A stretch of DNA of 64,000 nucleotides, from positions 384,001 through 448,000 of the forward strand of contig CAWJGT010000009.1 in NCBI GenBank assembly GCA_963842525.1, written 5' to 3'. Position 1 is the first letter of the stretch. Each line of letters begins with the position of its first letter. Both the position numbers and the translations under genes were made by a program. The stretch comes from an uncultured Holophagales bacterium (GTDB taxonomy: Bacteria; Acidobacteriota; Thermoanaerobaculia; Multivoradales; UBA5704). The notes beneath the pieces are model-generated. The model had not been told where the DNA came from and ran no database searches. It saw nothing but the letters and a program-made list of their open reading frames with translations. Below, piece by piece: positions 24,417 through 45,386 of this stretch.

Positions 24417-24532
24417 GTGAAGTGGGGGGCGGCCCTCCGCCGCCCCCTCGCCGTTCCCGTAACTGAGAACTGCCGGCGCGCTTTTGTGAGAGAATGATGC
24501 CGCCGGTTCGGGAATCCGAAAGGAGGTTGCGG

Positions 24533-25882
24533 GTGAGCGAGCATCCCTCAGCGGAGGATCTACGGGGTCTGTTCTTTGGCGGCGTGCCGGAAGAGCGGTT
24601 GCGCGCCGCCGTTCTTCACCTGCTGCGCGGCTGCCCGGAGTGCCGCGCCGCAGCGTTCGAGCATGCCCGGGCCATGGCGGCGCCTTTTCCGCGGGAGGCC
24701 CAGATCCCACCGGAGACGGACAAGGCCTACGACGCCGCGATCCGGCGCTCTATACAGGCAGCCCGCCGGTACCTCGAGCAGGAGGAAAAGCTCCCGGGCC
24801 GGATCGAGGAGGCCCGCGCCCTGCTCGACGCGAAGGACATGGACGGCTTCATCCGCGCACCGCGCTGGCTGTACGGGCTGCCCTTCGTCGAGGCCCTGCT
24901 GGAGCGGAGCTGGGCCGTGCGCCACGACGACCCGCAGAAGATGGTCCTTTATGCCCTTTTCGCCTCCCTCGAAGCCGACCAGCTCGACCGGAAGAAGCTC
25001 GGTGAGCAACGGGTGGAGGACATCCGCTGCCGGGCGTTGGTCGAGCTGGCAAACGCCCACCGGGTCGCGGACGACCTGCGGCAGGCCGAAGTAGCCCTGG
25101 GGGAAGCGGCGGAAGCCTTCCAGAAGGGGAGCAAGGACGATCGGCTCAAGGCGCGGCTCCTCGAGGTGCAGGCCTCGCTGTATGGCGACGAGCGGAGCTT
25201 CGACCTCTGCTTTCAGTCGCTGGACCTCGTGATCGCCCTCCATCGTCGCCTTGGAGACGACCACATGGTGGGGAGGGCGCTGATCAAGAAAGGTCTCTTC
25301 CATGGTCACAATCAAGATTTCGACCGGGCGATTGAGCTCCTGGAGCAAGGGTTTACCCTCATCGATGATAAGCGCGACCCGAAGCTTGCCATGGGGACCG
25401 TCCACAATATCGTCCACTTCTTGGTCAAGCGTGGGAGCTATCGCAAGGCCCGCAGACTGCTTTGGGAGAATCTCTGGCGGTACGAGAAGCACGGTGGGGA
25501 AATCGACCGCATCAAGGTCTGGGGCCTTCGCGGCCTGATCAACACCGGGCTCGGGAATTTCAAGCTGGCCGAACAGGAATTCCGCAAGGGAAAGGAAGGC
25601 CTCGAGGCAGCCGGCCTTCGTTACACTGCAGCCATCGCGGCCCTCGATCTGGCCGATGTCCAGCTCCGTCAGGGTAAGACGAAAGAGGCGCAGGCCCTGG
25701 CCCGCGAGGCGGTGGACGTCTTCCGCTCTTTGAGAATCAGCCGCGAGACCGAGATCGCGGTCCTGTTCCTGGAGGAGACTGTCAAGCAGCGTCTCCTGTC
25801 GAGCGCCGTCCTGCGGGAGATCGCCGAGTTCCTGCGCCGCGCCGAGCAGGACTCCGGAGCCCGGTTCGAGCCGAAGATCTGA
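24533..25882 (+). CDS. Zinc-motif + TPR-like protein (putative peptide receptor 1)
   Basis: GTG after AGGAGG; EHPS...HLLRGCPEC; RHDDPQKM, LANAHRV, VHNI, AALDLA helical repeats; no signal peptide or TM. Confidence 0.85.
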   Translation: MSEHPSAEDLRGLFFGGVPEERLRAAVLHLLRGCPECRAAAFEHARAMAAPFPREAQIPPETDKAYDAAIRRSIQAARRYLEQEEKLPGRIEEARALLDAKDMDGFIRAPRWLYGLPFVEALLERSWAVRHDDPQKMVLYALFASLEADQLDRKKLGEQRVEDIRCRALVELANAHRVADDLRQAEVALGEAAEAFQKGSKDDRLKARLLEVQASLYGDERSFDLCFQSLDLVIALHRRLGDDHMVGRALIKKGLFHGHNQDFDRAIELLEQGFTLIDDKRDPKLAMGTVHNIVHFLVKRGSYRKARRLLWENLWRYEKHGGEIDRIKVWGLRGLINTGLGNFKLAEQEFRKGKEGLEAAGLRYTAAIAALDLADVQLRQGKTKEAQALAREAVDVFRSLRISRETEIAVLFLEETVKQRLLSSAVLREIAEFLRRAEQDSGARFEPKI

Positions 25883-26312: not shown

Positions 26313-27548
26313 TTACAGCGTCGTCAGTACCTTGGCCAGGCGCTCGACCGCCCAGTCGATCTCTTCCTTTTTGATGGTCAGCGGCGGCGCGATACGGATG
26401 ACGTGGTCGTGGGTCTCCTTGCAGAGGAGCCCTTCCTTCTGCAGCGCCTCGCAGAAGCGACGGGCGCCGCCGGCCTCGCGGTGCAGCTCGATGCCGATCC
26501 ACAGGCCCTTGCCACGGACCTCCTTGATGTGCTGCGAGGAGATCTGCCGCAGGCGGTCCATGAAGTAGGGGCCCAGGGCGGCTGAATTCTCGATCATCTC
26601 CTCGTCGACCAGGACGCGCAGCGCGGCGCGCGCCACGGCCGCGGCCATCGGGTTGCCGCCGTAGGTCGAGCCGTGCTCGCCAGGCTGGAAGACCCCCATC
26701 ACCGGGTCGTCGGCCAGGATGCCGGAGACCGGGTAGAAGCCGCCGGAGAGGGCCTTGCCCACGATCACGACGTCGGGCCGGATCTCCTCGTGCTCGAAGG
26801 CGAACATCTTGCCGGTGCGGCCGAGGCCGGACTGGATCTCGTCGGCGATCAGCAGCGCGTTGTGCCGCTGGGTGATCTCGCGCAGGCGGCGCAGGTAGCC
26901 TTCGGGCGGCACCACGATGCCCGCCTCGCCCTGGATCGGCTCGACCAGCACCGCCGCCACGTTCGGGTGCATGGCCGCCTCGACCGCGTCGGCATCGCCG
27001 TAGGGGAGGACGCGGAAGCCGGGGGTGAAGGGGCCGAAGCCGGCGCGGTAGAGCTCCTCGGTCGAGAAGCTGACGATGCTGATCGTGCGGCCGTGGAAGT
27101 TGTTGCCGAAGGCGAGGATCTCGGCCTGCCCCTCGGGGATGCCCTTGACCTGGTAGCCCCACTTGCGGGCGGTCTTGAGGGCGGTCTCGACCGCTTCGGC
27201 GCCGGTGTTCATCGGCAGGAACTTGTCGAAGCCGGTGAGCTCGCAGATCTCCTTGTAGAAGGGTCCGAGCTGGTCGTTGCGGAAGGCGCGCGAAGTGAGG
27301 GTCACGGAGTAGGCCTGGTCGAGCATCGCCTGCAGGATCTTGCGGTGGCCGTGGCCCTGGTTGACGGCCGAATAGGCGGCCAGGAAATCGAGGTACTTGT
27401 TGCCCTCGACGTCCCAGACCCAGACGCCTTCGGCACGGCTCACCACCACGTCGAGCGGGTGGTAGTTGTGCGCTCCGAAGCGGTCTTCGAGGGCGATGTA
27501 GTCCTCGGTCTTCATCTGCTTCTTCTCTTCAAGCACAAAGGTGCTCAT
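26313..27548 (-). CDS. rocD: Ornithine aminotransferase
   Basis: [65 protein letters not shown]. Confidence 0.95.
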
Positions 27549-27715
27549 ATCTCCTCCAGGTGGTAACCGGTACCAGGGCGAATGGGTGGGGATTTCCCGG
27601 GGCGGACAGCGGCCCGAGCCGCGATCGGCCGCCGTATTAATGCGCCACATTGTGCCACAACGGACGGCGGATTTCAGGCGGGCCGCCGTCCCTGCTATCA
27701 TGCTGGCCGTAAGTC

Positions 27716-29245
27716 ATGCCTGACTATTCCAACGTTCCGCGGGACTCCCGTCGCGTCCCCATCGCGACGAAGGTCCAGTTCAAGTTCGACCGCTTCAGCG
27801 GTTTCCTGAGCGAGTACTCCGCCAACATCTCGCCCACGGGGCTGTTCATCGTCACCAAGACGCCGGAGCCGGCCGGCCGGGTGCTCGAGCTGGAGTTCCA
27901 CCTCGGCGACGGCTTCGAGATCATCAAGGGCAACGGCGAGGTGGTGTGGACCCGCACGGTCGCCGACGGCCCCCACCGGCCGGCGGGCATGGGCCTCCGC
28001 TTCCTGGAGCTGAGCCCGGGGAGCAAGGACCTCATCTACCGCATCGTCGACCAGTACGTGCTGGCGGGCGGCACGCCGTTCGACCTGATCGAGGCCGGGG
28101 GCGGGGTCGCTGCATCCTCTTCGGCGCCCTCCCGCGTCCCGGCCGAGGCGGACGACCTCCTGGCCCCCCTGCCGCCGCTGGACCTGGAGCCGGACCCGTT
28201 CCCGGACCTGGAGCCGGAGCCGCTCAAGGAGTCCTCTTCGAACGTGCTCCCCTGGCGCCGGCCGCCGGATCTCCGGATGGTCGAAGAGCCGGGGCTCGAG
28301 CCGGCCGGCGAGATCTTCGCGCTGGAGGAACCGGGTGCGCTCCCGGTTTTCGAGAGCCGGCCGGACCCGCTCTCGCTGCCCTCGCTGCCCTCGCTGCCAA
28401 CACCGGCCCCCTTCGCCGCCTCCGTCCCTTCGTCTGCGGCCGACGAGCTCTTCGCGTCGTATCTCCCCAAGCCGGCCGAGCCTCCGGAGCCGACGATGTC
28501 GAGGACTCTGTCGAGCCTCGCCGGCAGCGCCTCCGCGCAGGCCGAGCGCCGGCTGGCTCCGTGGGTGCTTGGGCTCGTCCTCCTCTGCGCGCTCGCCGCG
28601 GCCGGGATCCTTTTCCGCGACGATCTGCTCGGCCTCATCGGCCTGGGAGACGATGGAGAGGAGGTCGCGGCGGCTCCAACGACCCGGCCGCAGGAGCTGC
28701 CGCTCCGGCGGACGCAGCCTGCCGTACCGCCGCCTCCTTCCGCATCGGCAGCACCCGGCCTGACGTCCGACGTCGAGCCGGCGAAGCCCGCACCAGCCCT
28801 TGAGACGACCACAGCTCCAGACGCCGCCCCGCGGGAGCCCGCGGCCGAGGAGCCGCTGCCGGAGGTGGTGCAGCGCAAGCCGGCTCCGGAGCCCGCGGCC
28901 GTGCCGGCGGTGAGCGCCGTCGAACGGATCACCTTGGAGCCGACCGCCGGCAGTACCGTCGTGGTGCTCTGGGGCAACGGCGTCTTCCAGCCGCAAAGCT
29001 ACAGCCAGAGCCGCATGGACGGGCCGCCGCGCTCTCTGATCCGTCTCACCGGCATCCGCCGGCCCTTCTCGCCGACCCGCATTCCGGTCGGCACCCCCCA
29101 GGTGCGGCAGGTGCGGACCGGCTATCACGAGAAGGCCGGGGGCAATGAGCTCCACATCGTGCTCGACCTCGGGGGGCCGGGCGTCAAGATCACCCGGATC
29201 GATCAGGACGGCCAACGCCTGCGGATTCATCTGGAGGGACCGTAA
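27716..29245 (+). CDS. PilZ domain - Pro-rich linker - TM - AMIN-like domain protein
   Basis: RDSRR (RxxxR) and NISPTG (NxSxxG) PilZ motifs; TM WVLGLVLLCALAAAGILF; C-terminal PPRSLIRL..VRQVRTG..LHIVLDL. Confidence 0.8.
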   Translation: MPDYSNVPRDSRRVPIATKVQFKFDRFSGFLSEYSANISPTGLFIVTKTPEPAGRVLELEFHLGDGFEIIKGNGEVVWTRTVADGPHRPAGMGLRFLELSPGSKDLIYRIVDQYVLAGGTPFDLIEAGGGVAASSSAPSRVPAEADDLLAPLPPLDLEPDPFPDLEPEPLKESSSNVLPWRRPPDLRMVEEPGLEPAGEIFALEEPGALPVFESRPDPLSLPSLPSLPTPAPFAASVPSSAADELFASYLPKPAEPPEPTMSRTLSSLAGSASAQAERRLAPWVLGLVLLCALAAAGILFRDDLLGLIGLGDDGEEVAAAPTTRPQELPLRRTQPAVPPPPSASAAPGLTSDVEPAKPAPALETTTAPDAAPREPAAEEPLPEVVQRKPAPEPAAVPAVSAVERITLEPTAGSTVVVLWGNGVFQPQSYSQSRMDGPPRSLIRLTGIRRPFSPTRIPVGTPQVRQVRTGYHEKAGGNELHIVLDLGGPGVKITRIDQDGQRLRIHLEGP

Positions 29246-29257
29246 AAGGGTGATAGA

Positions 29258-30373
29258 ATGCCGGTCCCCGACCCGGTGGTAGATGCAGGCAGCCCGATGT
29301 CGAATGTGAAGCGGCTCAAGCGCCAGATACTCCAGGAGCTGGTGCAGGAGAATGTAGATCTCCTCCACGGCCGCCCTGCCCGGCGGGTGCGCCCGCGCCC
29401 CGGCCGCCTGTGGACGGTGCCCCGCGTCCTGGCGTTCTCCCTGTTGCCCATCGCGCTGCTCGGCTCGACCCGGCTGATCTCCTCGCTGGAGTCCCGCCAG
29501 CCACCGAATCCTGTCGTTGCGTCGGTCGCCCCTCCGGCGCCGGCCCCATCGGTCCAATCCGTCCCATCGGTCCGACCGGTCCAGACGGTTCAACCCCCAC
29601 CGCCAGCCACGGGAGCTCGCGTCGAGCCGCCGAAGCCGATCGACGCGGCGGTCTTCCCGCTGGCGGTCCGCCGGGTGGCGCTCGATCCGGGGCACGGCGG
29701 CGAGAGCCTGGGCACCCACACGCCGCTCGGCCTGATGGAGAAGAACCTGACACTCGACGTCGCCCTGCGGCTGCGCAAGCTCCTCGAGGCCGACCATTTC
29801 GAGGTCGTGATGACGCGCCAGGACGACGGGGACGTGCCGCTCTCGCAACGCGGCGCCGCCGCCAACCAGGGGGATGCCGACATCTTCGTCTCGATCCACG
29901 TCAACTGGATCGAGAACCGGCAGGCGCGCGGGGTCGAGACCTACTACCTGGGGCCGACGAACGATCCGTTCCTGACCCGGCTCGCGGCGGCGGAGAACCG
30001 GGAATCCGGCTATTCGATGGCCGACATGCGGCAGCTCCTCGACCGCATCTACGCCAACGTGCGCCAGGACAATTCCCGCAAGCTGGCCGAGGTCGTCCAG
30101 GCGTCGCTGTTCAGCTCGCTGCGCCAGTTCAATCCCAACCTCGACAACCGGGGGGTCAAGGCGGCCCCCTTCATCGTCCTGCTGACCACCGAGATGCCGG
30201 CCATCCTCGCTGAGGTATCCTGCCTGTCGAACGACGAGGAGGCCGAGCTCCTGTCCAAGCCCCACTACCGGCAGTACATCGCCGAGGCGCTCGCGGCGGG
30301 GGTCCGCTCCTATGCGGACGCCGTCGCCGGGGCGCCGCCGGAGGGGCCGCAGAGCCGTAAGAAAGGAACCTGA
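29258..30373 (+). CDS. N-acetylmuramoyl-L-alanine amidase (Amidase_3)
   Basis: ALDPGHGG, EKNLTL, FVSIHVN, GVETYY, PAILAEV zinc-amidase motifs; N-terminal membrane anchor. Confidence 0.92.
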   Translation: MPVPDPVVDAGSPMSNVKRLKRQILQELVQENVDLLHGRPARRVRPRPGRLWTVPRVLAFSLLPIALLGSTRLISSLESRQPPNPVVASVAPPAPAPSVQSVPSVRPVQTVQPPPPATGARVEPPKPIDAAVFPLAVRRVALDPGHGGESLGTHTPLGLMEKNLTLDVALRLRKLLEADHFEVVMTRQDDGDVPLSQRGAAANQGDADIFVSIHVNWIENRQARGVETYYLGPTNDPFLTRLAAAENRESGYSMADMRQLLDRIYANVRQDNSRKLAEVVQASLFSSLRQFNPNLDNRGVKAAPFIVLLTTEMPAILAEVSCLSNDEEAELLSKPHYRQYIAEALAAGVRSYADAVAGAPPEGPQSRKKGT

Positions 30374-31413
30374 TGGATACGTATGACAAGCAGCGTGATG
30401 TCCTCCACGTGGGGATCGACCTGGGGACGTCGCGGAGCTCGATCTCCGCGTCCAACGGCCAGCGCCATGTGGTGGAGAGCTACGTCGGCTGGCCGCTCGA
30501 CATGGTGGCCCGCAAGGTTCTGAAGAAGCCGGTCCTGATCGGCCGCGAGGCGCTCGACAACCGGTCCATGCTCGACCTCCACCGGCCGCTGGAGCAGGGG
30601 CTGATCAAGGAGGGGTCGGACAAGGACGAGGCCGCGGTGCGCGAGCTGCTCTGGCACCTCCTGTCGCTCGCCGGGGTCAACCGCGAGAGCCGCAACGGCC
30701 TCAAGGTGCGGGCGGTGGTCGGCGTCCCGGCCGAGGCGCTGCGGGTCAACAAGCAGCAGGTCCGCAAGGCGCTCCAGGGCGTGGTGGACAGCCTGATGAT
30801 CGTCTCCGAGCCGTTCGCCGTGGCCTATGGGCTGGAGTCGCTGCTCCACAGCATGATCATCGACCTGGGGGCGGGCACCACCGACTTCTGCGTCATGAAC
30901 GGCCGCCTGCCCACCGAGGACGACCAGCGGACGCTGCCGCAGGCGGGCGACTGGATCGACGAGCAGCTCTTCCGGCTGGTCCGCGACCGCCATCCGCAGG
31001 CCAGCGTCTCGCAGCACATGGTGCGCACCTGGAAGGAGGAGGGGAGCTTCGTCGGCAACAACAAGATGCCGGTGGTGGTCACCGCGCCGGTCGCCGGCAA
31101 GCCGACGCAGATCGACATCACCCAGGAGATGCGGCAGGCCTGCGAAGGCATCCTGCCGCCGCTGTCCGAGTCGATGCTCGACCTGCTCTCGCGGGTGCAG
31201 CCCGAGTACCAGGAGCGGGTCCGCCAGAACATCATCGTCTCCGGCGGCACCGGGTTGATCCGTGGCCTGGGTCCCCGCCTCGAGCAGGATCTGCAGCAGG
31301 TGGGCGGCGGCAAGGTGCGGGTGGTCAAGGACCCGGTTTTCGTCGGCTCCGACGGCGGCCTTTCCATCGCCCTCGACGCACCCGAGGGAGACTGGGAGAG
31401 GCTGGGCGCCTGA
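30373..31413 (+). CDS. MamK-like actin-family ATPase
   Basis: GIDLGTS, VGVPAEA, VSEPFAVAYG, IDLGAGTTDFC, QPEYQ..NIIVSGG, VKDPVF; residue pattern closer to MamK than to MreB as recalled; TGATG coupling to the amidase. Confidence 0.85.
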   Translation: MDTYDKQRDVLHVGIDLGTSRSSISASNGQRHVVESYVGWPLDMVARKVLKKPVLIGREALDNRSMLDLHRPLEQGLIKEGSDKDEAAVRELLWHLLSLAGVNRESRNGLKVRAVVGVPAEALRVNKQQVRKALQGVVDSLMIVSEPFAVAYGLESLLHSMIIDLGAGTTDFCVMNGRLPTEDDQRTLPQAGDWIDEQLFRLVRDRHPQASVSQHMVRTWKEEGSFVGNNKMPVVVTAPVAGKPTQIDITQEMRQACEGILPPLSESMLDLLSRVQPEYQERVRQNIIVSGGTGLIRGLGPRLEQDLQQVGGGKVRVVKDPVFVGSDGGLSIALDAPEGDWERLGA

Positions 31414-31443
31414 GCCCTGACGCCTCAGACGGGAGACCACCTC

Positions 31444-32920
31444 ATGTTCGGATCCATGGTGCTGGAAGTCGCGGTCGGCGTCATCTTCGTGTACCTGTTG
31501 CTGAGCCTGATGGTCACCGCGATCACGGAGTTGATCTCGGGATGGCTCAAGTGGCGGGCCACCGATCTCCGGAAGGGGATCCGCAGCCTCCTCGAATCCG
31601 GGGACTCCGAAAAATGGGTGAACGCGCTGTACGAACACTCGTTCATCCAGGGGCTCTCTCCGACGGAGGAGAAGGAGGCGAAGGGGAAAGGCCCGTCCTA
31701 CATCCCGTCGCGCACCTTCACCCTCGCCCTTCTGGACGTAGTTCGTGACACCAATTCGGCGGGCGAGCTCCTCGCCCGGGTCCTGCGCCAGGCGCTCGAC
31801 ACGGCTCCGGATTCGGCATCACTGGCCGATCTGAAGAAGGGGATCAAGGACGAGCTCCAGAAGATCCCGGATGACAAGGTGGGTGCGGGCCTCAAGGGAC
31901 AGGCCGCGGCGCTGGTCGACCGAATCCCAGCCAGTGTGTCTCTGGCCGATGCGAAGAAGGATCTCGGCGCTTATCTGCAACAGCTCTCCGGCCGATCGCT
32001 CCAGAGCCTGCTCCAGGACCTGCCGGACACAAAGCTGAGGAAATCCCTCCTCTGCCTGCTGGAGGAATCCCAGGGAAACATCGAGTCCTTCAAGGAGAAC
32101 GTCGAGATCTGGTTCAACAACTCGATGTCCCGCGTCAGCGGCTGGTACAAGAGGCGGACCCAACTCGTCCACATCATTCTGGCTGTGGTCCTGACGCTCG
32201 TGACCAACGTGGACACAGTCCTCGTCGTGAACGCCCTCTCCAAGAATCCGGCACTCCGCGAGTCGGTTGCCGCTCAGGCCGAGGCGTACGCGAAGGAGAA
32301 CCAACCCGCGGCCAGCGAATCCACCCCTGCGGCTGCGGAGGCCACGCCAGCTCCTGTGGAGGCCACGCCAGCTCCTGTGGAGGCCACGCCAGCTCCGGCA
32401 GAGACCCCGGCGCCGGAGGACAATGCCGAGCCCACGCCTGCACCTCCGGCTGGGACGACCGAGGCCGAAGGCGCCGGGCAGGGTGGGGAGACGGCAGCCG
32501 CGACAACGTCGGCCGATCCGGACGAGACCTTCCGGAAGCTCCGGGCTCAGCTCGACGCGCTCGAGCTGCCGGTAGGCTGGGTCCTCCCCAAGGAGAACCA
32601 GAAGCCTGCCGAAGCCGAAAGGGACAATGCGGACTTCCGCGAGTGGCCCGGCTGGTGGCCTTCCGGAACCGCCGGCGAATGGGCGCTCCTCTGGGCGCAG
32701 ACGGTCCGTTTCCACCTGTTCGGCTGGGTGCTCACGGCTTTCGCGATCTCGCTGGGGGCCCCCTTCTGGTTCGAACATGCTGAACAAGGTCATCAACATC
32801 CGGTCTGCCGGCAAGGCTCCCGAAGAGAAGCCGAAAGCGCCCAAGGAGGTGCCGCAGCCGCTGGAGCCGGGTCAGACGCCCACGCAGGCGGACGCGCTGG
32901 CCAACGCGGCGCAGCGGTGA
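31444..32920 (+). CDS. Membrane protein of unknown function, apparent frameshift ~32775
   Basis: N-terminal TM, PSYIPSRTF, WFNNSMSRVSGWYKR, SLGAPFWF; C-terminus continues in ORF ending 32920. Confidence 0.75.
32338..32400 (+). repeat. 21-bp coding tandem repeat (EATPAPV x3)
   Basis: gaggccacgccagctcctgtg repeated three times (last copy variant). Confidence 0.8.
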
Positions 32921-32926
32921 TCTGGG

Positions 32927-33034
32927 GTAGCCTGGGGTTGGAAACCCCAGGCTGGTCAGCGCCGCCCATGCGGGGCGGGTGGTGGAGTCGCCCGGTAGGG
33001 CGATGGTTTCCAGCCTGGGGTTTCAACCCCAGGC
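32927..33034. repeat. Pair of REP-like hairpins between convergent genes
   Basis: GTAGCCTGGGGTTGGAAACCCCAGGC at 32927 and AGCCTGGGGTTTCAACCCCAGGC at 33012. Confidence 0.7.
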
Positions 33035-33067
33035 GCTGGAGCCCGATCCCCCGCTCCTGACCCCACG

Positions 33068-36000
33068 CTACCGCCCGCCCTTCTTCGATGCCTGTGCTCC
33101 CGCCGGCACCGCTACCGGCTCGTTCGGTCCTTCCGGCTTCGGCGTCTTGGGGCCTCCCCGCTCGATGGTGTAGAGCGCGTCCGCGCTCGTCCCCTCCCCC
33201 GATTCGGCCTGGAGCGTCCACTTGTCGCTCAGCAGGTAGCGGATGCGGAAGGTGTTGACCGGCTGGAAAAGTCCCATCCCGAAAGAGACGTAGAGCTTCG
33301 GGGAGAGGTACTTGGCGACCACCAGGGAGGCCGTGTCCAGCGAGCCGTCGGACTCGATGCGCGCCTCTTCGAGCCCGAAACGGGCGGCGAGCTTCTTGGC
33401 AAGGAGGTTGCCGCCGCGGATGCCCAGCGCGGTGGCGGCGTTCGCCAGCCGGTCCCCCTCCTGCGGCTGGGCACGGTTGAGTGGCCGGCCGAGCATCAGG
33501 TAGGAGAGCTGCTCCGTCTGCGTCATGGTCGGATTGGACCAGAGCGTGACCTCCGGCTTCTTGATCGTCCCCTTGGCGACGATGCCGGCGATCGTGCCGT
33601 CGTCGGCCTTGCGGTAGGCGCGGAGGTCGACGGCCGGGTTGGCGAGCGGACCGGCGAAGATCACCCGGCCGCGCTCGATCGTCAGATCCTGGCCATAGGC
33701 CTTGAAAATCCCCTTCTCGACCTCGATCTCGCCGAAGGCGCGCGTCACCTGGCCGGGGCGTTGGACCACCAGGACCGAGCCGGTGGGCTCCGCGTCGAGG
33801 CCGAAAGCCTTGACCTCGATGTCCTTGCCGAGGATGAAGCGCACCCGGGCCGACACCGCCGTCTTCTGCACGGGCTCGGCGTCCCCCTCGGCGTTGACGA
33901 AGACGACGTCCTTGGACGCCGTGACCGGCCCTTCCTTACGCTCCTTGATCTCGACGTCCGCCTCGGGGATCACGATGTCGCCGGTGAGCTCGGCCGTGTC
34001 CCCCTGGGCGATGAAGGTGAGGTCCGGCGAGACCACGGCGCGGATCTCTTCGGTGTCGGAGACCTGGAACCGCTGGCCCTTGATGGCCAGGCGGACCGGC
34101 GTCTCGGGGCTCGGCATGCCCGCGCGGCCCTTGAGGGTCAGGGTCCCGGGACCGGACCGGACGCTGCCGTCGATCGCCAGGGCGCCGCTGCCGTCGCCGG
34201 TCGCTGTGAGCTGGATCGCCCGCAGCTCCAGGCCGAAGCGGGGAATGTCGGCGCGGCCGTCTCTCAGCCGGGCTTCGCCGACGAAACGGGGCGACCCCAC
34301 CGTGCCGGACAGGGCGTAGCCCCCTTCCAGAGCGCCCGCCGGTCGGCTCAGGTCGGGGACGAACCCCTCGACGAAGCCGAGGTTGGCGAGCGCCACGTCG
34401 ATCCGGCCGGAGAGCGGCTGGCTCTGGAACGGCACGCCGCCAACGAGCCGCGGCAGCCGCAGGTCGGCGCGGATCGAGCCCACGTCGGCCAGCGTGATCT
34501 GCGCCGTGGCCCGGCCCGGTCCGCCGGACCCGGCCACCGCCTGGACCACCCCCTCCTGGTAGCGGAACGCCACCGTCCGTCCCTCGGCGCCCGGGAAGCG
34601 GAGCTCGCCTGGGCCAGGCCGCAGGTCGACGTCGACCGAGGCCACGACCGTGTTGGTGCCGCGCGCCCGTGCCGTGCCGTTGAGGTCGCCGGTGACCTGG
34701 AGGTCGGGCGGAAGGAACGGCTTGAAGGTGTTGAGGGGGAAATCGGCGATGGTCGAGTCGACGCTCCATGGCCCGGCCTTGGACCAGCCGCCGGTGGCGC
34801 ACACCCGGGCGCCGCCCGAGACCCAGCAGAAATCCTTCAGATTGACCGCCTCCGTCGAGGCCGTGAGCGGTGCCGCGCCCGCCAGGCGCCAGGTTCCGGT
34901 CGGTTCCGACTGCAAGTCGAGCCGGCTGACCTGGCCTTTCCAGGATGTCGTGCCCACGAGGCCGCCGGCGAGCGCCAGGTCGAGGCGCCCTTCCTCGGCC
35001 ACGGCCGTTGCCGTGAGGGTGTGGCTCCCGCGGGTCCCCTGGCCGCGGACGGTCAGCTCCGAGAGCCGGTTCTCCCCGGACTGGAGGCCGGTGGAGCGGA
35101 GGTCCAGGGAGACGGTCCCGCCGGGCGCCAGGCTCACGTCCGCGACGAGAGCCGCCTGTGCGATCGCGGTGTCGCCGAAGCGGATCTCCTTGCCCTTGGC
35201 GTCGACCTGGATGCGCGGCGTCTTCGTCGGCCCGGAGAGCCGTCCCTGGGCGATCACCGCGCCGCCGCCGCGGGGCACCGCGATCCCCAGGTTGGGCGCC
35301 GTGACATTCCAAGCCAGATTGAAGGCCGGGGCGACCTGCCCTTGGGCGGATGCCTCCACCGTCCCCCAGCGAAGGTCGAGCCGCGTGATCTCCTGGCGCG
35401 GGCCGGCCATCCGCAGCCCCGCGGTCCCCGACACCGGCTGCTGGCGGAGCACGCCGGCGAAGCGGGGGATTTCGACGGTGCCGACCGGGCCTCCCTCCTC
35501 CAGCCGGCCGCGCGTCGACGCGGTGAACGAGAGGCGTCCCGGAAATTCGGGCGACAGCCGCGCCGGCTCGATCCCGTCGGCGCGCAGGTTCGCGGTCCAG
35601 CGCACCTGCGGCGCCCAGGCGACCTCGCCGGTGCCGCCGACCCGGCCGCCGAGCAGGCCGCCCTGGAGCTTCGCGAACCGGAAGTGGGTGCTGTCCCCCT
35701 GGCCGGCGACCACCCAGCGTCCGGGGAGGATGTCGCCGCCGGGGGCCTGCGTCAGGTCGGCCTGGACCTCCGCCTTGTAATCGTCGGCGTTGCCGGAGAC
35801 CTTGGCGGTGCCGCGTGAGCTGGCGACCAGCGTCGGGCCGCCACGTAGCGGCCAGCGGAGGTTTTGCCAGCTCGCATCGCCGTCGAAGTCGAAGGTCTTG
35901 TCCCGCAGAGTGATCAGGCCCTTGGCGCCGAGGCGCGTGGGGGTGCCCGGCAGGGAGACGTCGGCCTTGGCGATCCGCCATGCGGCTCCGTCGCGGGAGA

Positions 36001-36943
36001 CCTGGTAGGACACGACCGCCGGCCCGACCTCCGGCGCGCGCCCGCGGACCGTACCGGAGCTGGTGAATTCCTCGATCTGCCCGGCGATCCGGATCTCGCC
36101 GCTCGCCGGAATGTCGGGCAGGTCCGCCTTGATCAGCCGGGGGTTGAAGCCCGAGAAGCGCAAGCCGCCGTCGAACCCCAGGTCCGAGAGCGGCTGGGTC
36201 AGCACGGCATCGAGATGGGCCGGGAAGGGGGCCGCGAGGTCCTGGACCACGCGCAGCTTCTCCAGGCTGCCGGTCAGCGGTCCCTGGCCGGAGAAGGCCG
36301 CCATGTCAGGAAGCCGGACCGTCCAGCGGGCCTGCAGGTCCACCGGGTAGTCCCCCTGCGGCTGGAATCTGCCCGTGACGTCGCCGTCGAGCAGCGGCGC
36401 GCGCACGGTGAAGCGCTCGATCTGGAAGCGGCTGCCGATCGCCGTCGTCACCAGGTCGATGCGGTCGATGACGAAGGGGTCCGGCCCGGCGCCGATCTTC
36501 AGGTCGCGCACCCGCGCATCGCGCAGCAGGATGTTGAAGCCCAGATTGATGTCCGGCAGCGGACCGCTCTCCTTCTTCTCCTTCGACGGCGTGGGGACGA
36601 TGCGGATGCCGTCGGCGTAGAGGCGCTCGATGTCCACCCGGCGCGACAGGAGATCGCGCATCTTCCACTGGAGCTGGACGCGCTCGACGTACATGTCGAG
36701 GCCGTCGCGCTTGTAGACGAGCCCGCGGATGTCCAGCGGGCCGCGCAGCGGACCGTGGATCTCGCGCACCTCCAGCGAGCCGGGGACGATCGCGCCGAGG
36801 CGGGTGAACAGCCACTCGGTCCCTCCCTGGGTGCCGAGCAGGAACCAGACGGCGGAGCCCAGGAGCAGGGCAAAGACGACGAGAACGGCGGAGCCCCACA
36901 AGAGGGTCCGCCGCAGGCGGGGGTGGTTCAACAGCAGCTTCAT
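33068..36943 (-). CDS. tamB: Translocation and assembly module TamB
   Basis: N-terminal anchor LGTQGG, long beta-rich body, C-terminal YGQDLTIERG..FAGP..NP and KYLSPKLYVSFG. Confidence 0.93.
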   Translation of the reverse strand: MKLLLNHPRLRRTLLWGSAVLVVFALLLGSAVWFLLGTQGGTEWLFTRLGAIVPGSLEVREIHGPLRGPLDIRGLVYKRDGLDMYVERVQLQWKMRDLLSRRVDIERLYADGIRIVPTPSKEKKESGPLPDINLGFNILLRDARVRDLKIGAGPDPFVIDRIDLVTTAIGSRFQIERFTVRAPLLDGDVTGRFQPQGDYPVDLQARWTVRLPDMAAFSGQGPLTGSLEKLRVVQDLAAPFPAHLDAVLTQPLSDLGFDGGLRFSGFNPRLIKADLPDIPASGEIRIAGQIEEFTSSGTVRGRAPEVGPAVVSYQVSRDGAAWRIAKADVSLPGTPTRLGAKGLITLRDKTFDFDGDASWQNLRWPLRGGPTLVASSRGTAKVSGNADDYKAEVQADLTQAPGGDILPGRWVVAGQGDSTHFRFAKLQGGLLGGRVGGTGEVAWAPQVRWTANLRADGIEPARLSPEFPGRLSFTASTRGRLEEGGPVGTVEIPRFAGVLRQQPVSGTAGLRMAGPRQEITRLDLRWGTVEASAQGQVAPAFNLAWNVTAPNLGIAVPRGGGAVIAQGRLSGPTKTPRIQVDAKGKEIRFGDTAIAQAALVADVSLAPGGTVSLDLRSTGLQSGENRLSELTVRGQGTRGSHTLTATAVAEEGRLDLALAGGLVGTTSWKGQVSRLDLQSEPTGTWRLAGAAPLTASTEAVNLKDFCWVSGGARVCATGGWSKAGPWSVDSTIADFPLNTFKPFLPPDLQVTGDLNGTARARGTNTVVASVDVDLRPGPGELRFPGAEGRTVAFRYQEGVVQAVAGSGGPGRATAQITLADVGSIRADLRLPRLVGGVPFQSQPLSGRIDVALANLGFVEGFVPDLSRPAGALEGGYALSGTVGSPRFVGEARLRDGRADIPRFGLELRAIQLTATGDGSGALAIDGSVRSGPGTLTLKGRAGMPSPETPVRLAIKGQRFQVSDTEEIRAVVSPDLTFIAQGDTAELTGDIVIPEADVEIKERKEGPVTASKDVVFVNAEGDAEPVQKTAVSARVRFILGKDIEVKAFGLDAEPTGSVLVVQRPGQVTRAFGEIEVEKGIFKAYGQDLTIERGRVIFAGPLANPAVDLRAYRKADDGTIAGIVAKGTIKKPEVTLWSNPTMTQTEQLSYLMLGRPLNRAQPQEGDRLANAATALGIRGGNLLAKKLAARFGLEEARIESDGSLDTASLVVAKYLSPKLYVSFGMGLFQPVNTFRIRYLLSDKWTLQAESGEGTSADALYTIERGGPKTPKPEGPNEPVAVPAGAQASKKGGR

Positions 36944-39651
36944 AGATCAGGTCCTACCGTGAGATGGAAGCGGACGGGATGGCCCGGCTCGTTGAGGGCC
37001 CAGGCGGCATCGGCGCGGATCGGACCGATGGGGGTCACCCAGCGCAGCCCCACGCCGGCCCCCTCGGCCAGCTCGCCGGATAGCGACTGCATGGCGTTGC
37101 CGGCGTCGTAGAAGGCGGCGATCCCCCACTTTTCAAGGAACCGCCACTTTTGCAGGAAACGGAACTCGAGCTCGACGCTGCCGGTCAGCAGGCTCTCGCC
37201 GCCGATGATGTTGCCTTCCTCGTCGCGGCGGCCCAGCTCCTGATAGCCGTAGCCGCGCACGCTCTGGTCGCCGCCGGCGAAGAAGCGGACCGTCGGAGGG
37301 AGATCGCGGAACTGGTCCGTCTCGGTCTGTCCCACCTGGAGGCGCGTGATGAACCGGAAGCGGTCGGCGAAGCTGTGGATCAGCTTCCCCTCGGCCCGGC
37401 CCTGCAGGAAGGAGGCGTTCGAGAGCGCCGCTTCGTCGGCCCCCCGCAGGGTGAATTCGATGCGGTGCCCCCGGTTCGTGGAGATGCGGTCGTCGGCGCG
37501 CACCCGGGTCCAGGTGGCCTGGGGGATCAGCAGCTCCGAGGTCCCCTCGTCGACGCCGACCTCGAAGTCCTCGCGCTGGAAGCTGAGCCCGTAGGCCTCG
37601 CGCCAGCTCCCGCGCGCCTGGGTGAGCCCGACGCCGACCAGGGCGCTCTGGCTGCGGACGTCGTTCGGCCGCAGGTCGGCGTAGCCCACCTGGAAGGTGA
37701 TGACGTCCGTTCGTGGGTAGGCGCCCGGCATTTCATAGGCGGCGCTGAAGCTCTTCTCGATCTGGGAGAGCCGAGCCTCGGAGCGCCCGCGGTGGCCGCG
37801 GCGGTTGATCCGGCGCAGCTCCACCGCGGCCGTGCCCCGCGGGCCGGTGTCGGTCCCATAGCCCGCGCCGACGTTCCATCTCTGGCGTGCGCTGGCCACC
37901 AGGTTGACCACGATCGGCACCTCGACCCCCTGGGCGAGGTCCTGCCGCGGCACCACCTCGACGCGCTGGAAATAAGGGCTGTCGCTGAGCGTCGTCTGCA
38001 TCTCCAGCAGCTTGTCGACGTCGAGCGGCTCGCCCTGCTCGAAGGTGACGTAGCCCTTGAGGAGGTCGGGGTTCAGGAAGTCCTGGTTGAAGGTCACTGG
38101 ACCGAAGTGGAAGCGCGGGCCGGTGGCGAAGTGGACGGCGACCGCGGAGGTGTAGGTGTCGAGGTCGACGCGGATCTCGCTGGTCGTGAAGTCGGCGTTG
38201 AGATAGCCGCCGGCCGCCGCGTAGTCGACGAGCGCCTGCTTGCCCGCCTCGTAGTCCGGATGGAACACGGTCTCCCCCTGCTTCAGAGGGAAGTCGCGGA
38301 CCCGCTGCTGGAACCCGGGATCGTCCGCTCCCTCGCCTTCGACCCGCACGTCCAGGGTGCTCACCCGGAGCGGCGGCCCGGCCTCGACCGTATAGCGCGC
38401 CACCCAGGTGTCCTCCTCGCGTTCGAGGGCGCTCTGGATGGCCGGCCGGTAGTAGCCGAACGGCTGGAGGGCGAGCTTGATGTCCTCCTCGCTCCTGGCG
38501 TGCAGGCGCCGGATCCGCTCCTCGGTGAGGTCCTTGTCCTTCCGTGCCTCTTCCAGGCTCAGCGTGGCCAGGACGTTGCGCCGCAGGTCGCCGTCGAGGC
38601 CTTCGATCTCGACCCGCAGCTTCTCGCCGGCCCACGCCGGAGCCGCGGCAAGCAGCAGGAAGGCGAGCCCGAGGACGGCGACGATTCCCCCACTGGCCTT
38701 CCGTTGCTCCGCCGCTGCCAGGGCCTCGGGGCTGGGCGCGGCGGCGCCGGCCAGCTCCCGCGGCACCCGGATCGCCCCCTCCTCGGGCTTGGGGCGATGG
38801 GACCGGTACTCCCGCGAGTGGATGTAGGTGAATTCGGCGCCGAAGAAGAAGATCAGCGACGAGTAGTAGACCCAGAGCAGGACCACGACCAGCGAGCCCG
38901 CGGCCCCATAGGCCGAAGCGGCTCCCGTGCGGCCCAGGTAGTAGCCGATCAGCGTCTTGCCGATCACGAAGAGCAGAGACGTCACCATGGCGCCCAGGAA
39001 GACGTCCCGGCCGCCGAGCCGGACATCGGGCAGCAGGCGGTAGATCAGGGCGAAGAGCAGGGTGGTCACGACGAACGACAGGACGAAATTGAAGACCTGG
39101 AGCAGCTCGACCGGCAGCGGGAGGAGAGCCTCCAAACGGCTGCCCAGGCTGGACAGCCCGGCGCTCAGCACCAGAGAGACCATCAGCAGGAACCCGATCC
39201 CCAGAAGAACGGTGAACGACAGAAGCCGTTTCCGGAGGAGGGTTGTAAAAACTGCCCCGGGCCGCGGCGCCACGCCCCAGACACGGTTCAGCCCGTCCTG
39301 GAGCTGGACGAACACCGCCGTGGCGCCGAAGAGGAGGGTTGCAATCCCGACGACCGTGGCGATCCGGCCCGACCCCGGGCGGGCCGCGCTCTTCAGGACC
39401 TCCTGGATCAGCAATGCAGCCTCCGGTCCCATCAGGCCTCTGAACTCGGAGAAAATCTGGTTGCGCACCGCCTGCTGGCCGAAGACGGCTCCGGCGAGCG
39501 CGATCACCACCAGCAGCACCGGCGCCAGGGAAAAGATCGTGTAGAAGGCAAGGCTCGCGCTCTGGGTGGAAGCGCCGTGGCGATTCCAATGGACGATCAC
39601 TTCGCCCAGCAGCTTGCGCCATTCGTCGAGCCTCGTCTTCAATTTCTTCAT
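36940..39651 (-). CDS. tamA: YihY/BrkB-family membrane domain fused in frame to TamA (Omp85 family)
   Basis: ASLAFYTIFSLAP..YGAAGSLVVVLLWVYYS (YihY), then a signal-like segment AWA|GE, ALQPFGYY, GYGTDTG, RFFAGGDQSVRGY, TPIGPIRAD, terminal GPDL. Confidence 0.85.
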   Translation of the reverse strand: MKKLKTRLDEWRKLLGEVIVHWNRHGASTQSASLAFYTIFSLAPVLLVVIALAGAVFGQQAVRNQIFSEFRGLMGPEAALLIQEVLKSAARPGSGRIATVVGIATLLFGATAVFVQLQDGLNRVWGVAPRPGAVFTTLLRKRLLSFTVLLGIGFLLMVSLVLSAGLSSLGSRLEALLPLPVELLQVFNFVLSFVVTTLLFALIYRLLPDVRLGGRDVFLGAMVTSLLFVIGKTLIGYYLGRTGAASAYGAAGSLVVVLLWVYYSSLIFFFGAEFTYIHSREYRSHRPKPEEGAIRVPRELAGAAAPSPEALAAAEQRKASGGIVAVLGLAFLLLAAAPAWAGEKLRVEIEGLDGDLRRNVLATLSLEEARKDKDLTEERIRRLHARSEEDIKLALQPFGYYRPAIQSALEREEDTWVARYTVEAGPPLRVSTLDVRVEGEGADDPGFQQRVRDFPLKQGETVFHPDYEAGKQALVDYAAAGGYLNADFTTSEIRVDLDTYTSAVAVHFATGPRFHFGPVTFNQDFLNPDLLKGYVTFEQGEPLDVDKLLEMQTTLSDSPYFQRVEVVPRQDLAQGVEVPIVVNLVASARQRWNVGAGYGTDTGPRGTAAVELRRINRRGHRGRSEARLSQIEKSFSAAYEMPGAYPRTDVITFQVGYADLRPNDVRSQSALVGVGLTQARGSWREAYGLSFQREDFEVGVDEGTSELLIPQATWTRVRADDRISTNRGHRIEFTLRGADEAALSNASFLQGRAEGKLIHSFADRFRFITRLQVGQTETDQFRDLPPTVRFFAGGDQSVRGYGYQELGRRDEEGNIIGGESLLTGSVELEFRFLQKWRFLEKWGIAAFYDAGNAMQSLSGELAEGAGVGLRWVTPIGPIRADAAWALNEPGHPVRFHLTVGPDL

Positions 39652-39754
39652 GGTCCGTCTACAACGCGAATGCCTTGGTCGGCAAGAAGGATGCCAACCT
39701 GCGCCGGGGCTGTTGGGCGCCTCCGCATCGAGCAGCAGTGTTATGATCGCGATT

Positions 39755-40144
39755 ATGCCGAACATGCCGATGCACGCCGACGAGCGGCGGATCGCGGCAC
39801 TCCTGCGCGAGCTGATTCAGCAGGGAGGTGCTTCGAGCGAGGAGATCGAGAGCCGGCTGGGCTGGGAGCCCGGGCGGCTCGGCGCGGTGCTCAGCGGACG
39901 CCAGGGCCTCAGCTTCGAGGTCCTCCTCGAAGTCCTGCCGGTCCTGGACGAGACGCCCGGGAACTTCTTTGCACGCCTCTACGGCTTTCACCCCAGGGAA
40001 TCGGAGGACGCCGAAGGGCCGAACGGCTCCAACGGCTCTCCCAAGCCGGACCGCCGGTTCGAGGAGAGCCGGCGGGTCGTCAAGGACGCGATCGCACGCC
40101 GCTCCGCCTGGAAGGAGGAGCGGTCCACGACCACGACGTGCTGA
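39755..40144 (+). CDS. XRE-like helix-turn-helix protein
   Basis: LRELIQQGGASSEEIESRLGWEPGRLGAVLSG; convergent on the TPR array; start codon uncertain (39743-39770). Confidence 0.75.
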   Translation: MPNMPMHADERRIAALLRELIQQGGASSEEIESRLGWEPGRLGAVLSGRQGLSFEVLLEVLPVLDETPGNFFARLYGFHPRESEDAEGPNGSNGSPKPDRRFEESRRVVKDAIARRSAWKEERSTTTTC

Positions 40145-40153
40145 GGACGGGGG

Positions 40154-41536
40154 TTACTTCAGGCCCTGACGGTGGGGGAGCTGCTCCAGACGCGCGTTCA
40201 GGAAGCGGATCAGGTCGAACGCCTGGCGGCTCTGATCGGCCACCTGCTGGAGCTGGAGCAGCGCCGCGAGCGCCTCGCGGTCGACCCCCAGCGAGGTGAA
40301 GATCGGCACCATCTCCGACACCGACTGCTGGAGCGCCTCCACCTCGCCGAGCTTGAGGTAGACGGCCGCGAGGTCGAGCGAGACCACCGCAGCCTCGTAG
40401 AAGAGGTCCCGCTCCAGGAACCCCTGCCGGGCGCGCAGAAGGGACGCTTCGGCGGCCCGCAGATGCCCCAGGTCGCGCAGCAACTGCCCTTCCTGCCAGC
40501 CGGCGCGCAGCGAGATCAGCGAGTCGTTGAACTCCTTGTAGAGGTCCCGTGCCTCGAAGTAGATCGACAACGCCTGCTCGGGCCGGTCCAGGTCGATATA
40601 GCACCGGATCAGGTTGTGGCAGGCGGCGAGCAGCAGGTGCGGATCTCCTTCATGATCGATGAGCGGGATCGCCTGGTTGAGGATGCGCACCGCGGCCTCG
40701 GTCTCTCCGGAGTAGAGGGACGCGATCGCATTCTGCACCATGGTGCTGGCGAGGGCATGCTCGTCGTCGAGCTCGCGGTAGATGCGCCCGGCCTGGTCCG
40801 AAAGCTCGATCGCCTCGTCGAAGCGCCGCTGGAAGATCCGCAGCGAGGCGGTCTGCTCGAGGAGCCAGGCGCGCAACGGTGGGTCGCCGGTCCCCTCGGC
40901 ACAGAACCGGTGTGCCGTGGCGATGGCCTCCTCGGCCTCGCGCAGGCGGCCGGACACGCGCAGGGCGTTGCCGTGCTGCCGCCAGGCCTGGGTGCCCAGG
41001 TCCGCCAGCTTGGCGGCGCTGCCGGCCGTCGCGACCGAGCACGCCTCCGCGGACAGCCGGGCGAGATGCGCCAGATGGAGCATCCGGGCCGGATTTTCGT
41101 AGCGGGCGGCGTGGCTGGCCTCGATCAGGCGCGCGACGAGCTGCGCATTGGCGAAGCGGCTGTAGCTGCTCACCCAGCGCGCCTGCTCATCCAGAGGCAG
41201 CGGCGCCAGCTCGGCCATCAGCTCCTCGGGCGTGCTCTCCGGCGGCCGTCCCTCGGCAAAGAAGGCGGCCAACGCCTCCTCCGCCGCGGCGAAGGACCGT
41301 CCATACTCATACCCGGCCGATCCAGGATCCCGGTCGGAATTCCGTTCGGAGGGGATGCGGAACAGACGCTCCAGGCGACCGTTGTCCCAGCCCATGGCGT
41401 GCAGCGTCGCCCGGCAGGAGGCACAGCCGGCCAGCAGGTGCCGCAGCAGGCGCGCGTTGCGGGTCGCTTGCACCGGCCGCGACTCAGCCCGCAGGAAGCT
41501 CTCGAGCTCTTCGATGGTCGGATGGTCCGTCAGCAT
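40154..41536 (-). CDS. Zinc-motif + TPR-like protein (receptor 2)
   Basis: DHPT...HLLAGCASC; RYENPARMLHLA; GTGDP; [11 protein letters not shown]; [18 protein letters not shown]. Confidence 0.88.
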   Translation of the reverse strand: MLTDHPTIEELESFLRAESRPVQATRNARLLRHLLAGCASCRATLHAMGWDNGRLERLFRIPSERNSDRDPGSAGYEYGRSFAAAEEALAAFFAEGRPPESTPEELMAELAPLPLDEQARWVSSYSRFANAQLVARLIEASHAARYENPARMLHLAHLARLSAEACSVATAGSAAKLADLGTQAWRQHGNALRVSGRLREAEEAIATAHRFCAEGTGDPPLRAWLLEQTASLRIFQRRFDEAIELSDQAGRIYRELDDEHALASTMVQNAIASLYSGETEAAVRILNQAIPLIDHEGDPHLLLAACHNLIRCYIDLDRPEQALSIYFEARDLYKEFNDSLISLRAGWQEGQLLRDLGHLRAAEASLLRARQGFLERDLFYEAAVVSLDLAAVYLKLGEVEALQQSVSEMVPIFTSLGVDREALAALLQLQQVADQSRQAFDLIRFLNARLEQLPHRQGLK

Positions 41537-41649
41537 GGGCAAGCCCTCCAAAGAGCCTGTTCCGGATACAAGACAGAAACGGCGTACGGCCGTAGTATAA
41601 AATTATACGAGCCTGACGGCGCTCGGAGAAGAACGCGTTCTATCAGGTA

Positions 41650-45311: not shown

Positions 45312-45386
45312 GATGCACCTCTTGAGCCATGCGGCCGGCGGCAACGCCGCCGGCCGGTGAGGCGACTTGGCTGAGCCGCCTCTGGA

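Follow-up and report, generated by a model that had tools for sequence, protein, structure and literature searches.

In a 64,000-nucleotide (nt) stretch of DNA from an uncultured Holophagales bacterium (the window: contig CAWJGT010000009.1 of assembly GCA_963842525.1, positions 384,001 to 448,000), we analyzed a three-gene locus that most likely is an operon encoding a cytoskeleton-to-cell-wall module. It encodes a protein with a PilZ domain, a transmembrane (TM) segment and an AMIN domain (gene 1), a membrane-anchored peptidoglycan amidase of the Amidase_3 family (gene 2), and an actin related to MamK (gene 3). The amidase-actin pair is the invariant core of this locus. We consider it rather probable that the amidase is an autoinhibited enzyme of the AmiA/B/C type, that the actin filament positions it or gates it through a cytoplasmic tail of the enzyme, and that the PilZ-AMIN protein adds wall targeting and an input from cyclic diguanosine monophosphate (c-di-GMP).

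A preliminary description of the locus, made from the sequence, had reported a compact three-gene run with TGATG coupling between amidase and actin. Both were found: three + strand open reading frames (ORFs) fill positions 27716-31413 exactly, genes 1 and 2 are separated by 12 nt, and the overlap lies at 30371-30375. The genome has 9.95 Mb in 34 contigs, a guanine-cytosine (GC) content of ~69%, and a completeness of 96.37%, and it is related to Thermoanaerobaculia (phylum Acidobacteriota) from soil.

The amidase-actin pair across genomes

In 79 of 80 genome-contig loci, the gene immediately upstream of the actin is the amidase, and in the sole exception (L073) the sequence starts inside the actin gene. 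Among 401 sampled Acidobacteriota genomes, 30 carry the actin (25 in the window's class and five in three other families), and all the other 29 carriers have, like the window, the amidase upstream (29/29). We also sampled 401 genomes from the phylum of locus L072 (labelled Syntrophobacteraceae), 17 of them with a match. The three genomes at 51-64% actin identity, with GC contents of 0.32-0.60, have the amidase upstream (3/3), and the amidase is beside none of the 17 loci in the 14 genomes at ≤ 44% identity. For the sister clade represented by P0014, a metagenome scan gave 80 loci (39 of them ≥ 5 kb), and neither the amidase (0/80) nor gene 1 was found in any of them.

The two genes are also tightly packed. 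In 59 related loci, stop and start overlap by 4 nt in 14 and are 0-20 nt apart in 29; a few outliers stem from the heuristic picking of starts. The other neighbors vary between families, whereas the pair is kept across families, phyla (by record names), and GC contents from 0.32 to 0.74. Moreover, amidase linkage coincides exactly with one actin clade. The three-gene arrangement is thus not due to chance, since the pair recurs while the other neighbors change.

Some individual loci deserve mention. In a 2.8-Mb genome, the pair sits in a region of 32% GC (L235, G429:C24:20387-21397), and the actin match contains one in-frame TGA, which could mean that the gene is broken, that the sequence contains an error, or that a different genetic code is in use. 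In the acidobacterial family f19, the actin gene overlaps at its end with an ORF of 165 amino acids (L117:7996-8493 and L118:8005-8502), which has no Pfam match but on visual inspection resembles a small TPR-like protein of helical repeats. In the P0014-like sister clade (L142-L221), a conserved gene of ~260-400 amino acids is located directly upstream of the actin in 24 of the 39 loci ≥ 5 kb. Several of the 12 upstream genes scanned gave weak matches to coiled-coil families, and GGDEF domains were detected in two of them (L156 with 63.7 bits, L163 with 58.9 bits) and weakly in a third, L180. Next to non-magnetosome MamK-like actins, a connection to c-di-GMP is thus seen once more.

Identity of the actin

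Compared to solved structures, the actin scored highest against MamK (5ljw, 270.4 bits, E 2e-79), with 138 bits for BeeR (8r2n) and 54 bits for MreB (1jce). The NCBIfam MamK model (NF040964) was also the best family match, with 374.7 bits against a cut-off of 400 (375.1 bits in the genome search). The scores for the BeeR model (196.9 vs. 530) and for the MreB models PRK13927 (67.9 vs. 293) and TIGR00904 (56 vs. 365.75) were far under their cut-offs, and the genome encodes its own MreB separately, on contig C11.

The MamK-like motifs named in the preliminary description are present –VSEPF..YG, IDLGAGTTDFC, QPEYQ, VKDPVF, and W341– and align one-to-one with those of the solved MamK. The phosphate-1, phosphate-2, and adenosine motifs of the actin fold and the catalytic Glu and Asp are all in place. 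In an alignment of 20 clade members (A2), residues D16, G18, T19, E146, D164, G166, G168, G291, and G292 are invariant or nearly so, and six of them (D16, G18, E146, D164, G166, and G168) are invariant in all 20.

To place the actin, we searched 1.84 billion representative proteins, obtained 185 clusters at E ≤ 1e-30, and scanned the 65 full-length representatives, which scored 190-508 bits against the MamK model; five of them are BeeR-like. The top MamK scorer, P0037, reaches 463 bits to the solved MamK and is 40% identical to the window actin. Its match to the MamK structure was used to mark the true MamK clade. We built a quick tree of 108 rows and a careful tree of 78 rows (IQ-TREE, LG+C20+F+G4), the latter leaving out near-duplicates, nine fusion rows, P0043, and P0148. 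In both trees, every actin with an adjacent amidase falls into a single clade. The careful tree gives it 25 rows, namely 23 amidase-linked actins plus P0006 and P0009 –representatives of unknown gene context–, and shows the P0037 clade as separate, with 13 rows; both have a support of 100/99, which describes the clades and is no blind test, as the groups were drawn after the quick tree was seen. BeeR-like rows are basal (98/89), and MreB is the outgroup.

Since the actin scores under the NCBIfam cut-off and falls into a separate clade, it is by sequence a member of a distinct sister clade of MamK within the MamK superfamily, neither MamK proper nor MreB. The view of the actin as MamK-like therefore stood in that it groups with MamK and not with MreB, as the phylogenetic check suggested in the preliminary description shows, but it had to be narrowed to a sister clade instead of MamK itself. 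In fact, the actin misses three defining tests of MamK: cut-off score, clade placement, and the company of magnetosome genes.

On this last point, the reported lack of magnetosome genes extends to the whole genome: no magnetosome family tested passes its cut-off in this 96.37%-complete assembly. The best scores were 30.7 bits for MamP (cut-off 300), 108.3 for MamQ (250), and 87.6 for MamO (800), all on other contigs and none near the window, and similarly weak matches to these three families occur in non-magnetotactic control genomes. MamI gave no match in the genome, in a search that had no positive control. NF040962 was discarded as a magnetosome marker, as it proved to be an unrelated family.

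The family is large, with at least 5597 proteins at E ≤ 1e-20 among 8000 candidates scored, and it is abundant in soil metagenomes. A homologue listing of 120 proteins, query included, held only close orthologues, and those with a name were labelled MreB while the others were unnamed; these names did not serve to label the clades. For P0156-P0274, the named public records read 'rod shape-determining protein (MreB)', a systematic misannotation of the clade. Two types of fusion were also observed. P0018, P0021-P0036, and P0048 form one clade in which the MamK-like domain is C-terminal within proteins of 520-1230 amino acids whose N-terminal parts have no Pfam match. P0079 is a separate case: it belongs to the true MamK clade and fuses FtsZ (351.5 bits) to MamK (446.2 bits).

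The amidase and its predicted contact with the actin

Gene 2 matched Amidase_3 with 163.7 bits, and the match spans 211 residues for a profile of 174 positions. Its best sequence matches in the PDB were Bartonella AmiB (3ne8, 99.4 bits), E. coli AmiA (8c2o, 90.5 bits), and AmiC (4bin, 87.7 bits). By fold, AmiA 8c2o was the nearest in Foldseek (target-normalized TM-score, TMt, 0.82), with division amidases at TMt 0.82-0.83. The scores for the NCBIfam equivalogs were under the cut-offs: AmiA 100.3 vs. 400, AmiC 96.5 vs. 700, and AmiB 87.1 vs. 532. Residues H146, E161, H214, and E319, to which we assign metal-binding and catalytic roles by homology, are invariant across 18 diverse amidases (alignment A1). 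The alignment to 3ne8 and 8c2o continues through the regulatory insert, so that residues 237-288 align with the regulatory (autoinhibitory) helix region of AmiB and AmiA and may be autoinhibitory here as well; E246 and N247, inside this insert, are invariant in the 18 amidases. Judged by its residues, the amidase looks active and regulated. Two more Amidase_3 genes are located elsewhere in the genome.

At the structural level, the AlphaFold2 (AF2) model of gene 2 has a helix at residues 14-36, a second helix at 55-77, a disordered linker at 78-138, and helices at 237-288. We predict for both genes 1 and 2 a cytoplasmic N-terminal part and a periplasmic C-terminal part, which would leave the first helix of the amidase in the cytoplasm. 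This helix is conserved among the 18 amidases, which are 36-60% identical overall, with the consensus DRxKRxLLRxAVxENxExIxG and a nearly invariant N32. A conserved cytoplasmic helix on a periplasmic enzyme, encoded next to a cytoplasmic actin, suggests direct contact, and we therefore modeled the complex.

The model combined the actin (20-row alignment) and amidase residues 12-56 (18-row alignment). It scored 0.84 (runs 0.84, 0.86, and 0.84), and the best of three controls scored 0.00; the mark used for comparison lets through 116 of 157 complexes of solved structure and 2 of 215 mismatched pairs, and these figures are only rough here since we used our own alignments. The runs agree in ≥ 88% of contacts, and the partner has a predicted local distance difference test (pLDDT) value of ≥ 65. 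On the tail side the modeled interface comprises residues 17-40, and on the actin side residues 124-158, 177-179, and the C-terminal helix 332-346, with N32 of the tail contacting actin residues 141-143. The model supports binding of the cytoplasmic helix of the amidase to the actin.

The modeled surface carries residues specific to the clade. Among 44 clade rows, R124 is found in 41, R131 in 42, L141 in 39, L158 in 37, A336 in 40, and D340 in 38; these six positions are different in the MamK clade (13 rows) and in a further 43 MamK-like rows. Conservation within the clade is 0.81 at the interface vs. 0.74 elsewhere, and the share of MamK-clade rows with the clade consensus is 0.29 at the interface vs. 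0.38 elsewhere.

The PilZ-TM-AMIN protein

Gene 1 is ordered as a PilZ domain, a proline-rich linker, one hydrophobic segment, a proline/alanine-rich linker, and a C-terminal domain. The PilZ domain was above the cut-offs of both Pfam (44.6 vs. 22.5 bits) and TIGR02266 (71.6 vs. 68.7). The two c-di-GMP motifs of the preliminary description are there as R9DSRR13 and N37ISPTG42; both are retained in 59 of 62 homologous N-terminal domains, and R9, R13, N37, S39, and G42 are invariant in alignment A4.

The AMIN domain is more divergent. It scored 17 bits within the whole protein, below the Pfam cut-off of 20.5, but 21.4 bits as an isolated domain, and a profile built from 20 orthologous domains matched residues 191-300 of Myxococcus xanthus PilQ (3jc8) with an E-value of 4.5e-7. 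The AF2 model is all-beta with a pLDDT of 93.5. In Foldseek, it retrieved PilQ (3jc8_Qa, query-normalized TM-score, TMq, 0.66, E 4.2e-4) and E. coli AmiC (4bin, TMq 0.64, E 3.2e-3), and the list also contains 4aqz and 4av2 (PilQ B2). Profile and predicted fold together confirmed the AMIN assignment made in the preliminary description.

The two halves belong together: the PilZ-type and AMIN domains share one ORF in 55 of the 57 genome-contig loci with both matches, and in three loci from other genomes. Regarding its position, a gene 1 homologue adjoins the pair in 61 of 80 loci, and in several of the 19 loci without it the sequence ends just upstream of the amidase. The PilZ-AMIN gene is downstream instead of upstream of the actin in L126 and L128, from other families, and in L116 the C-terminal domain alone was detected, also downstream. 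Conservation of the trio, named as a check in the preliminary description, was thus supported, with the amidase-actin pair as its invariant part; gene 1 is relocated in some genomes, unlinked in others, and was not found in one.

Proposed mechanism and alternative explanations

The gene 3 product would be a cytoplasmic actin-fold ATPase that, by analogy to MamK, presumably polymerizes. The gene 2 product would be a division-type amidase with one helix as its inner-membrane anchor and another, of ~23 residues, exposed to the cytoplasm; in the model, the latter docks in an actin cleft formed by residues 124-158, 177-179, and 332-346. Whether the periplasmic amidase cleaves peptidoglycan, and at which place, would then depend on the filament. 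Gene 1 would supply in trans the peptidoglycan-targeting AMIN domain that AmiC has in cis, and its PilZ domain, fused through the membrane to AMIN and presumably binding c-di-GMP, would provide the second-messenger input. The role is most likely localized wall splitting, for example in daughter-cell separation or shape remodeling. We infer polymerization, membrane topology, c-di-GMP binding, autoinhibition, local hydrolysis, and the physiological role. Of the trans-envelope module suggested in the preliminary description, the tail-actin binding gained support from the complex model, and the topology stays a prediction. A more ambitious version, in which the MamK-sister filament grips the amidase tail and moves or places the enzyme along the membrane –possibly by end-tracking– while PilZ-AMIN makes the cut c-di-GMP-dependent, seems to us possible but doubtful.

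Several points weigh against the proposal that the filament positions or gates the amidase. The evidence for binding is model confidence and not measurement, support for every family member is computational throughout, and the carriers are nearly all uncultured. The contrast in interface conservation (0.81 vs. 0.74) is modest, and the rows are mutually related. Complexes with a peptide in the cleft are solved for other actins (ParM-ParR and FtsA with the FtsZ tail), and the model may have passed in part due to likeness with them. The modeled site lies on the surface of a monomer; should this cleft serve the contacts along the filament, the tail could bind monomers or filament ends only, and the mechanism would shift from a scaffold to capping or end-tracking. 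There is no gene for a LytM-type activator within the operon. Finally, a search with the AMIN profile in five genomes without a PilZ-AMIN gene at the actin locus gave mixed results: two have an unlinked PilZ-AMIN copy that lost one or both c-di-GMP motifs (G119, L225; G196, L226), two gave weaker matches in long frames that are probably PilQ (G056 and G246), and G042 gave no match in the genome. The PilZ-AMIN gene is not universal. Since it was not found in one carrier and is unlinked or relocated in others, we regard the pair as the core and gene 1 as a frequent but dispensable accessory.

The polarity of the module could be reversed, with the amidase and AMIN domains anchoring the MamK-like filament to the envelope and the filament positioning some other cargo. 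Both partners have periplasmic parts that bind the wall, the tail-actin model fits anchoring equally well, and organelle positioning is the role described for MamK in the accessible part of PMC10653835. We find this unlikely, as a mere anchor would not be expected to keep its catalytic and metal residues and its insert invariant in 18 amidases, no conserved cargo gene adjoins the pair, and no magnetosome family is above its cut-off. About as improbable is that the tail binds only the free cleft of monomers or filament ends, so that filament growth moves the amidase in a ParM-ParR-like manner or the tail itself controls polymerization. The modeled interface is indeed on the side of subdomains IA/IIA, which in actins and ParM serves partner peptides as well as contacts along the filament. 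However, a single complex model with a monomeric actin says nothing on the occupancy of this site in the polymer.

More distant explanations deny the physical link or the new function. Conserved synteny or a shared promoter alone could keep two unconnected genes together, and the promoter and terminator scans were uninformative in this respect. This no-link reading is disfavored and has very little probability in our opinion: the pair persists while its neighbors change, across phyla by record names and a GC range of 0.32-0.74, stop and start overlap or are 0-20 nt apart in most loci, the linkage matches one actin clade exactly, and the complex model is above the mark while its controls are at 0.00. 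That the locus retains a true MamK function, as part of a remnant or cryptic magnetosome system, would agree with MamK being the closest solved relative of the actin. With no MamI match in a search that had no positive control, MamP, MamQ, and MamO under their cut-offs, and the actin outside the MamK clade, its likelihood is practically nil.

Gene layout and neighboring genes

Coordinates of the genes and their features are listed in Table 1.

Table 1 Genes and features of the amidase-actin locus, in window positions
Feature	Position	Strand	Basis
Gene 1: PilZ-TM-AMIN protein, predicted bitopic, 509 amino acids	27716..29245	+	ORF and translation; PilZ and TIGR02266 above cut-off
PilZ domain, cytoplasmic (predicted), residues 9-112	27740..28051	+	Pfam 44.6 bits; RxxxR R9-R13, NxSxxG N37-G42
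Predicted TM segment, ~residues 280-300, RR before it	28553..28615	+	Sequence; R279 and hydrophobic stretch conserved
AMIN domain, periplasmic (predicted), ~residues 402-509	28919..29242	+	Pfam, PilQ profile match, AF2, Foldseek
Gene 2: membrane-anchored AmiA/B/C-type N-acetylmuramoyl-L-alanine amidase, 371 amino acids	29258..30373	+	Amidase_3 163.7 bits
Conserved N-terminal helix, cytoplasmic (predicted), residues 14-36	29297..29365	+	Alignment A1; AF2; complex model
TM helix of amidase, residues 55-77, after basic stretch	29420..29488	+	AF2; hydrophobic block conserved; predicted topology
Periplasmic catalytic domain (predicted), residues 139-358, including inserted helices 237-288	29672..30331	+	Alignment, Foldseek
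TGATG stop/start overlap of amidase and actin	30371..30375	+	TGA 30371-30373, ATG 30373-30375
Gene 3: actin-like ATPase, amidase-linked sister clade of MamK, 346 amino acids	30373..31413	+	NCBIfam, PDB, tree

Upstream of gene 1 lies an ornithine aminotransferase gene on the opposite strand. Downstream, an ORF of 538 amino acids with hydrophobic segments (P0004, 31444-33060, + strand) begins 30 nt past the end of the actin gene. Neither a Pfam family nor a counterpart among the 80 related loci was found for it, and we consequently rejected it as a fourth operon member and regard it as lineage-specific; its C-terminal ~80 residues resemble low-complexity or out-of-frame sequence. A scan of 27300-33300 gave 0 promoter-like and 4 terminator-like sites (2.2 expected), none of them informatively placed. 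The 20 sequencing runs listed for 27600-31500 each share only a small part of its words and are from DNA or of unknown kind, with no RNA run among them. A reading as a defense system was also dropped, since in PADLOC the actin reached only 18.1 bits and neither P0004 nor genes 1 and 2 had a match.

Further downstream, between the actin and a cluster of TPR genes, the window encodes a TamB-like protein of 1291 amino acids (33068-36943, - strand) and a protein of 941 amino acids in which a membrane domain of the BrkB family is combined with a TamA-like POTRA/Omp85 portion (36940-39765, - strand). This stretch is missing from the corresponding position in most relatives. The TPR_12 paralogues, of ~450 amino acids each, are located at 24494-25882 (+), 40154-41551 (-), 41693-43021 (-), and 44004-45344 (-), and further copies reach ~49900. 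Many related loci have two to three TPR_12 copies ~1.2 kb downstream of the actin. We did not adopt a link between TPR and actin by analogy to MamA: the family has 89 matches across this genome, and its proximity is therefore weak evidence.

Comparison with known systems

Bacterial actins are known for roles in wall synthesis (MreB), division (FtsA), plasmid segregation (ParM), and magnetosome organization (MamK). The module described here would be a previously undescribed variant of cytoskeleton-guided wall remodeling. Our searches of the literature, which left out subscription journals and supplements, turned up no account of either a PilZ-AMIN protein or an amidase-linked MamK-like actin. 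In the accessible part of PMC12270681, the sole passage on an amidase concerns the neighborhood of ParM in Clostridium, and the accessible passages of 10.1101/2022.07.08.499144 are unrelated to the module.

MamK (PDB 5ljw, 5jyg, and 5ljv) is the closest solved relative of the actin, similar in length and motifs, with E146 and D164 here corresponding to MamK E143 and D161. The partners are different: the actin here keeps a peptidoglycan amidase, whereas MamK keeps magnetosome proteins, and the modeled partner surface here bears clade-specific residues. BeeR (8r2n), from Verrucomicrobiota, is likewise an actin of the MamK superfamily in non-magnetotactic bacteria, and its text, as far as accessible (PMC11929497), offers a precedent with unknown function. 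That part mentions no amidase partner, and the terms 'operon', 'neighbor', and 'genomic context' occur 0 times in it. The actin here differs from BeeR in its score (196.9 bits vs. the BeeR cut-off of 530), and BeeR-like rows form a separate basal clade.

The known AmiA, AmiB, and AmiC amidases are soluble in the periplasm. The enzyme here shares with them (8c2o, 8c0j, 4bin, and 3ne8) the catalytic domain and the inserted helices, and the system includes an AMIN domain as AmiC does. Unlike them, it is predicted to be membrane-anchored with a cytoplasmic helix, the AMIN domain is on a separate PilZ protein, and no LytM gene –the type of activator used by AmiA/B/C– accompanies it in the operon. 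In outline, the module resembles the MreB-RodZ elongasome and the FtsA-anchored divisome, where an actin polymer is linked by a single-pass protein to periplasmic wall enzymes. Here the actin is of another family, the presumed actin-binding tail is on the enzyme itself, and this enzyme is a hydrolase instead of a synthase.

If the more ambitious version of the mechanism is true, the system would be the first in which an actin directs a wall hydrolase and not a synthase or an organelle; together with the GGDEF-linked sister clade, it would suggest that c-di-GMP control is general among non-magnetosome MamK-like actins. Already in the version that we favor, cytoskeleton-guided wall hydrolysis would join the known roles of bacterial actins, and the many non-magnetotactic relatives of MamK that are now labelled MreB would gain a first functional handle. 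The hypothesis is directly testable through the predicted contact between the tail helix of 23 residues and a defined surface of the actin.

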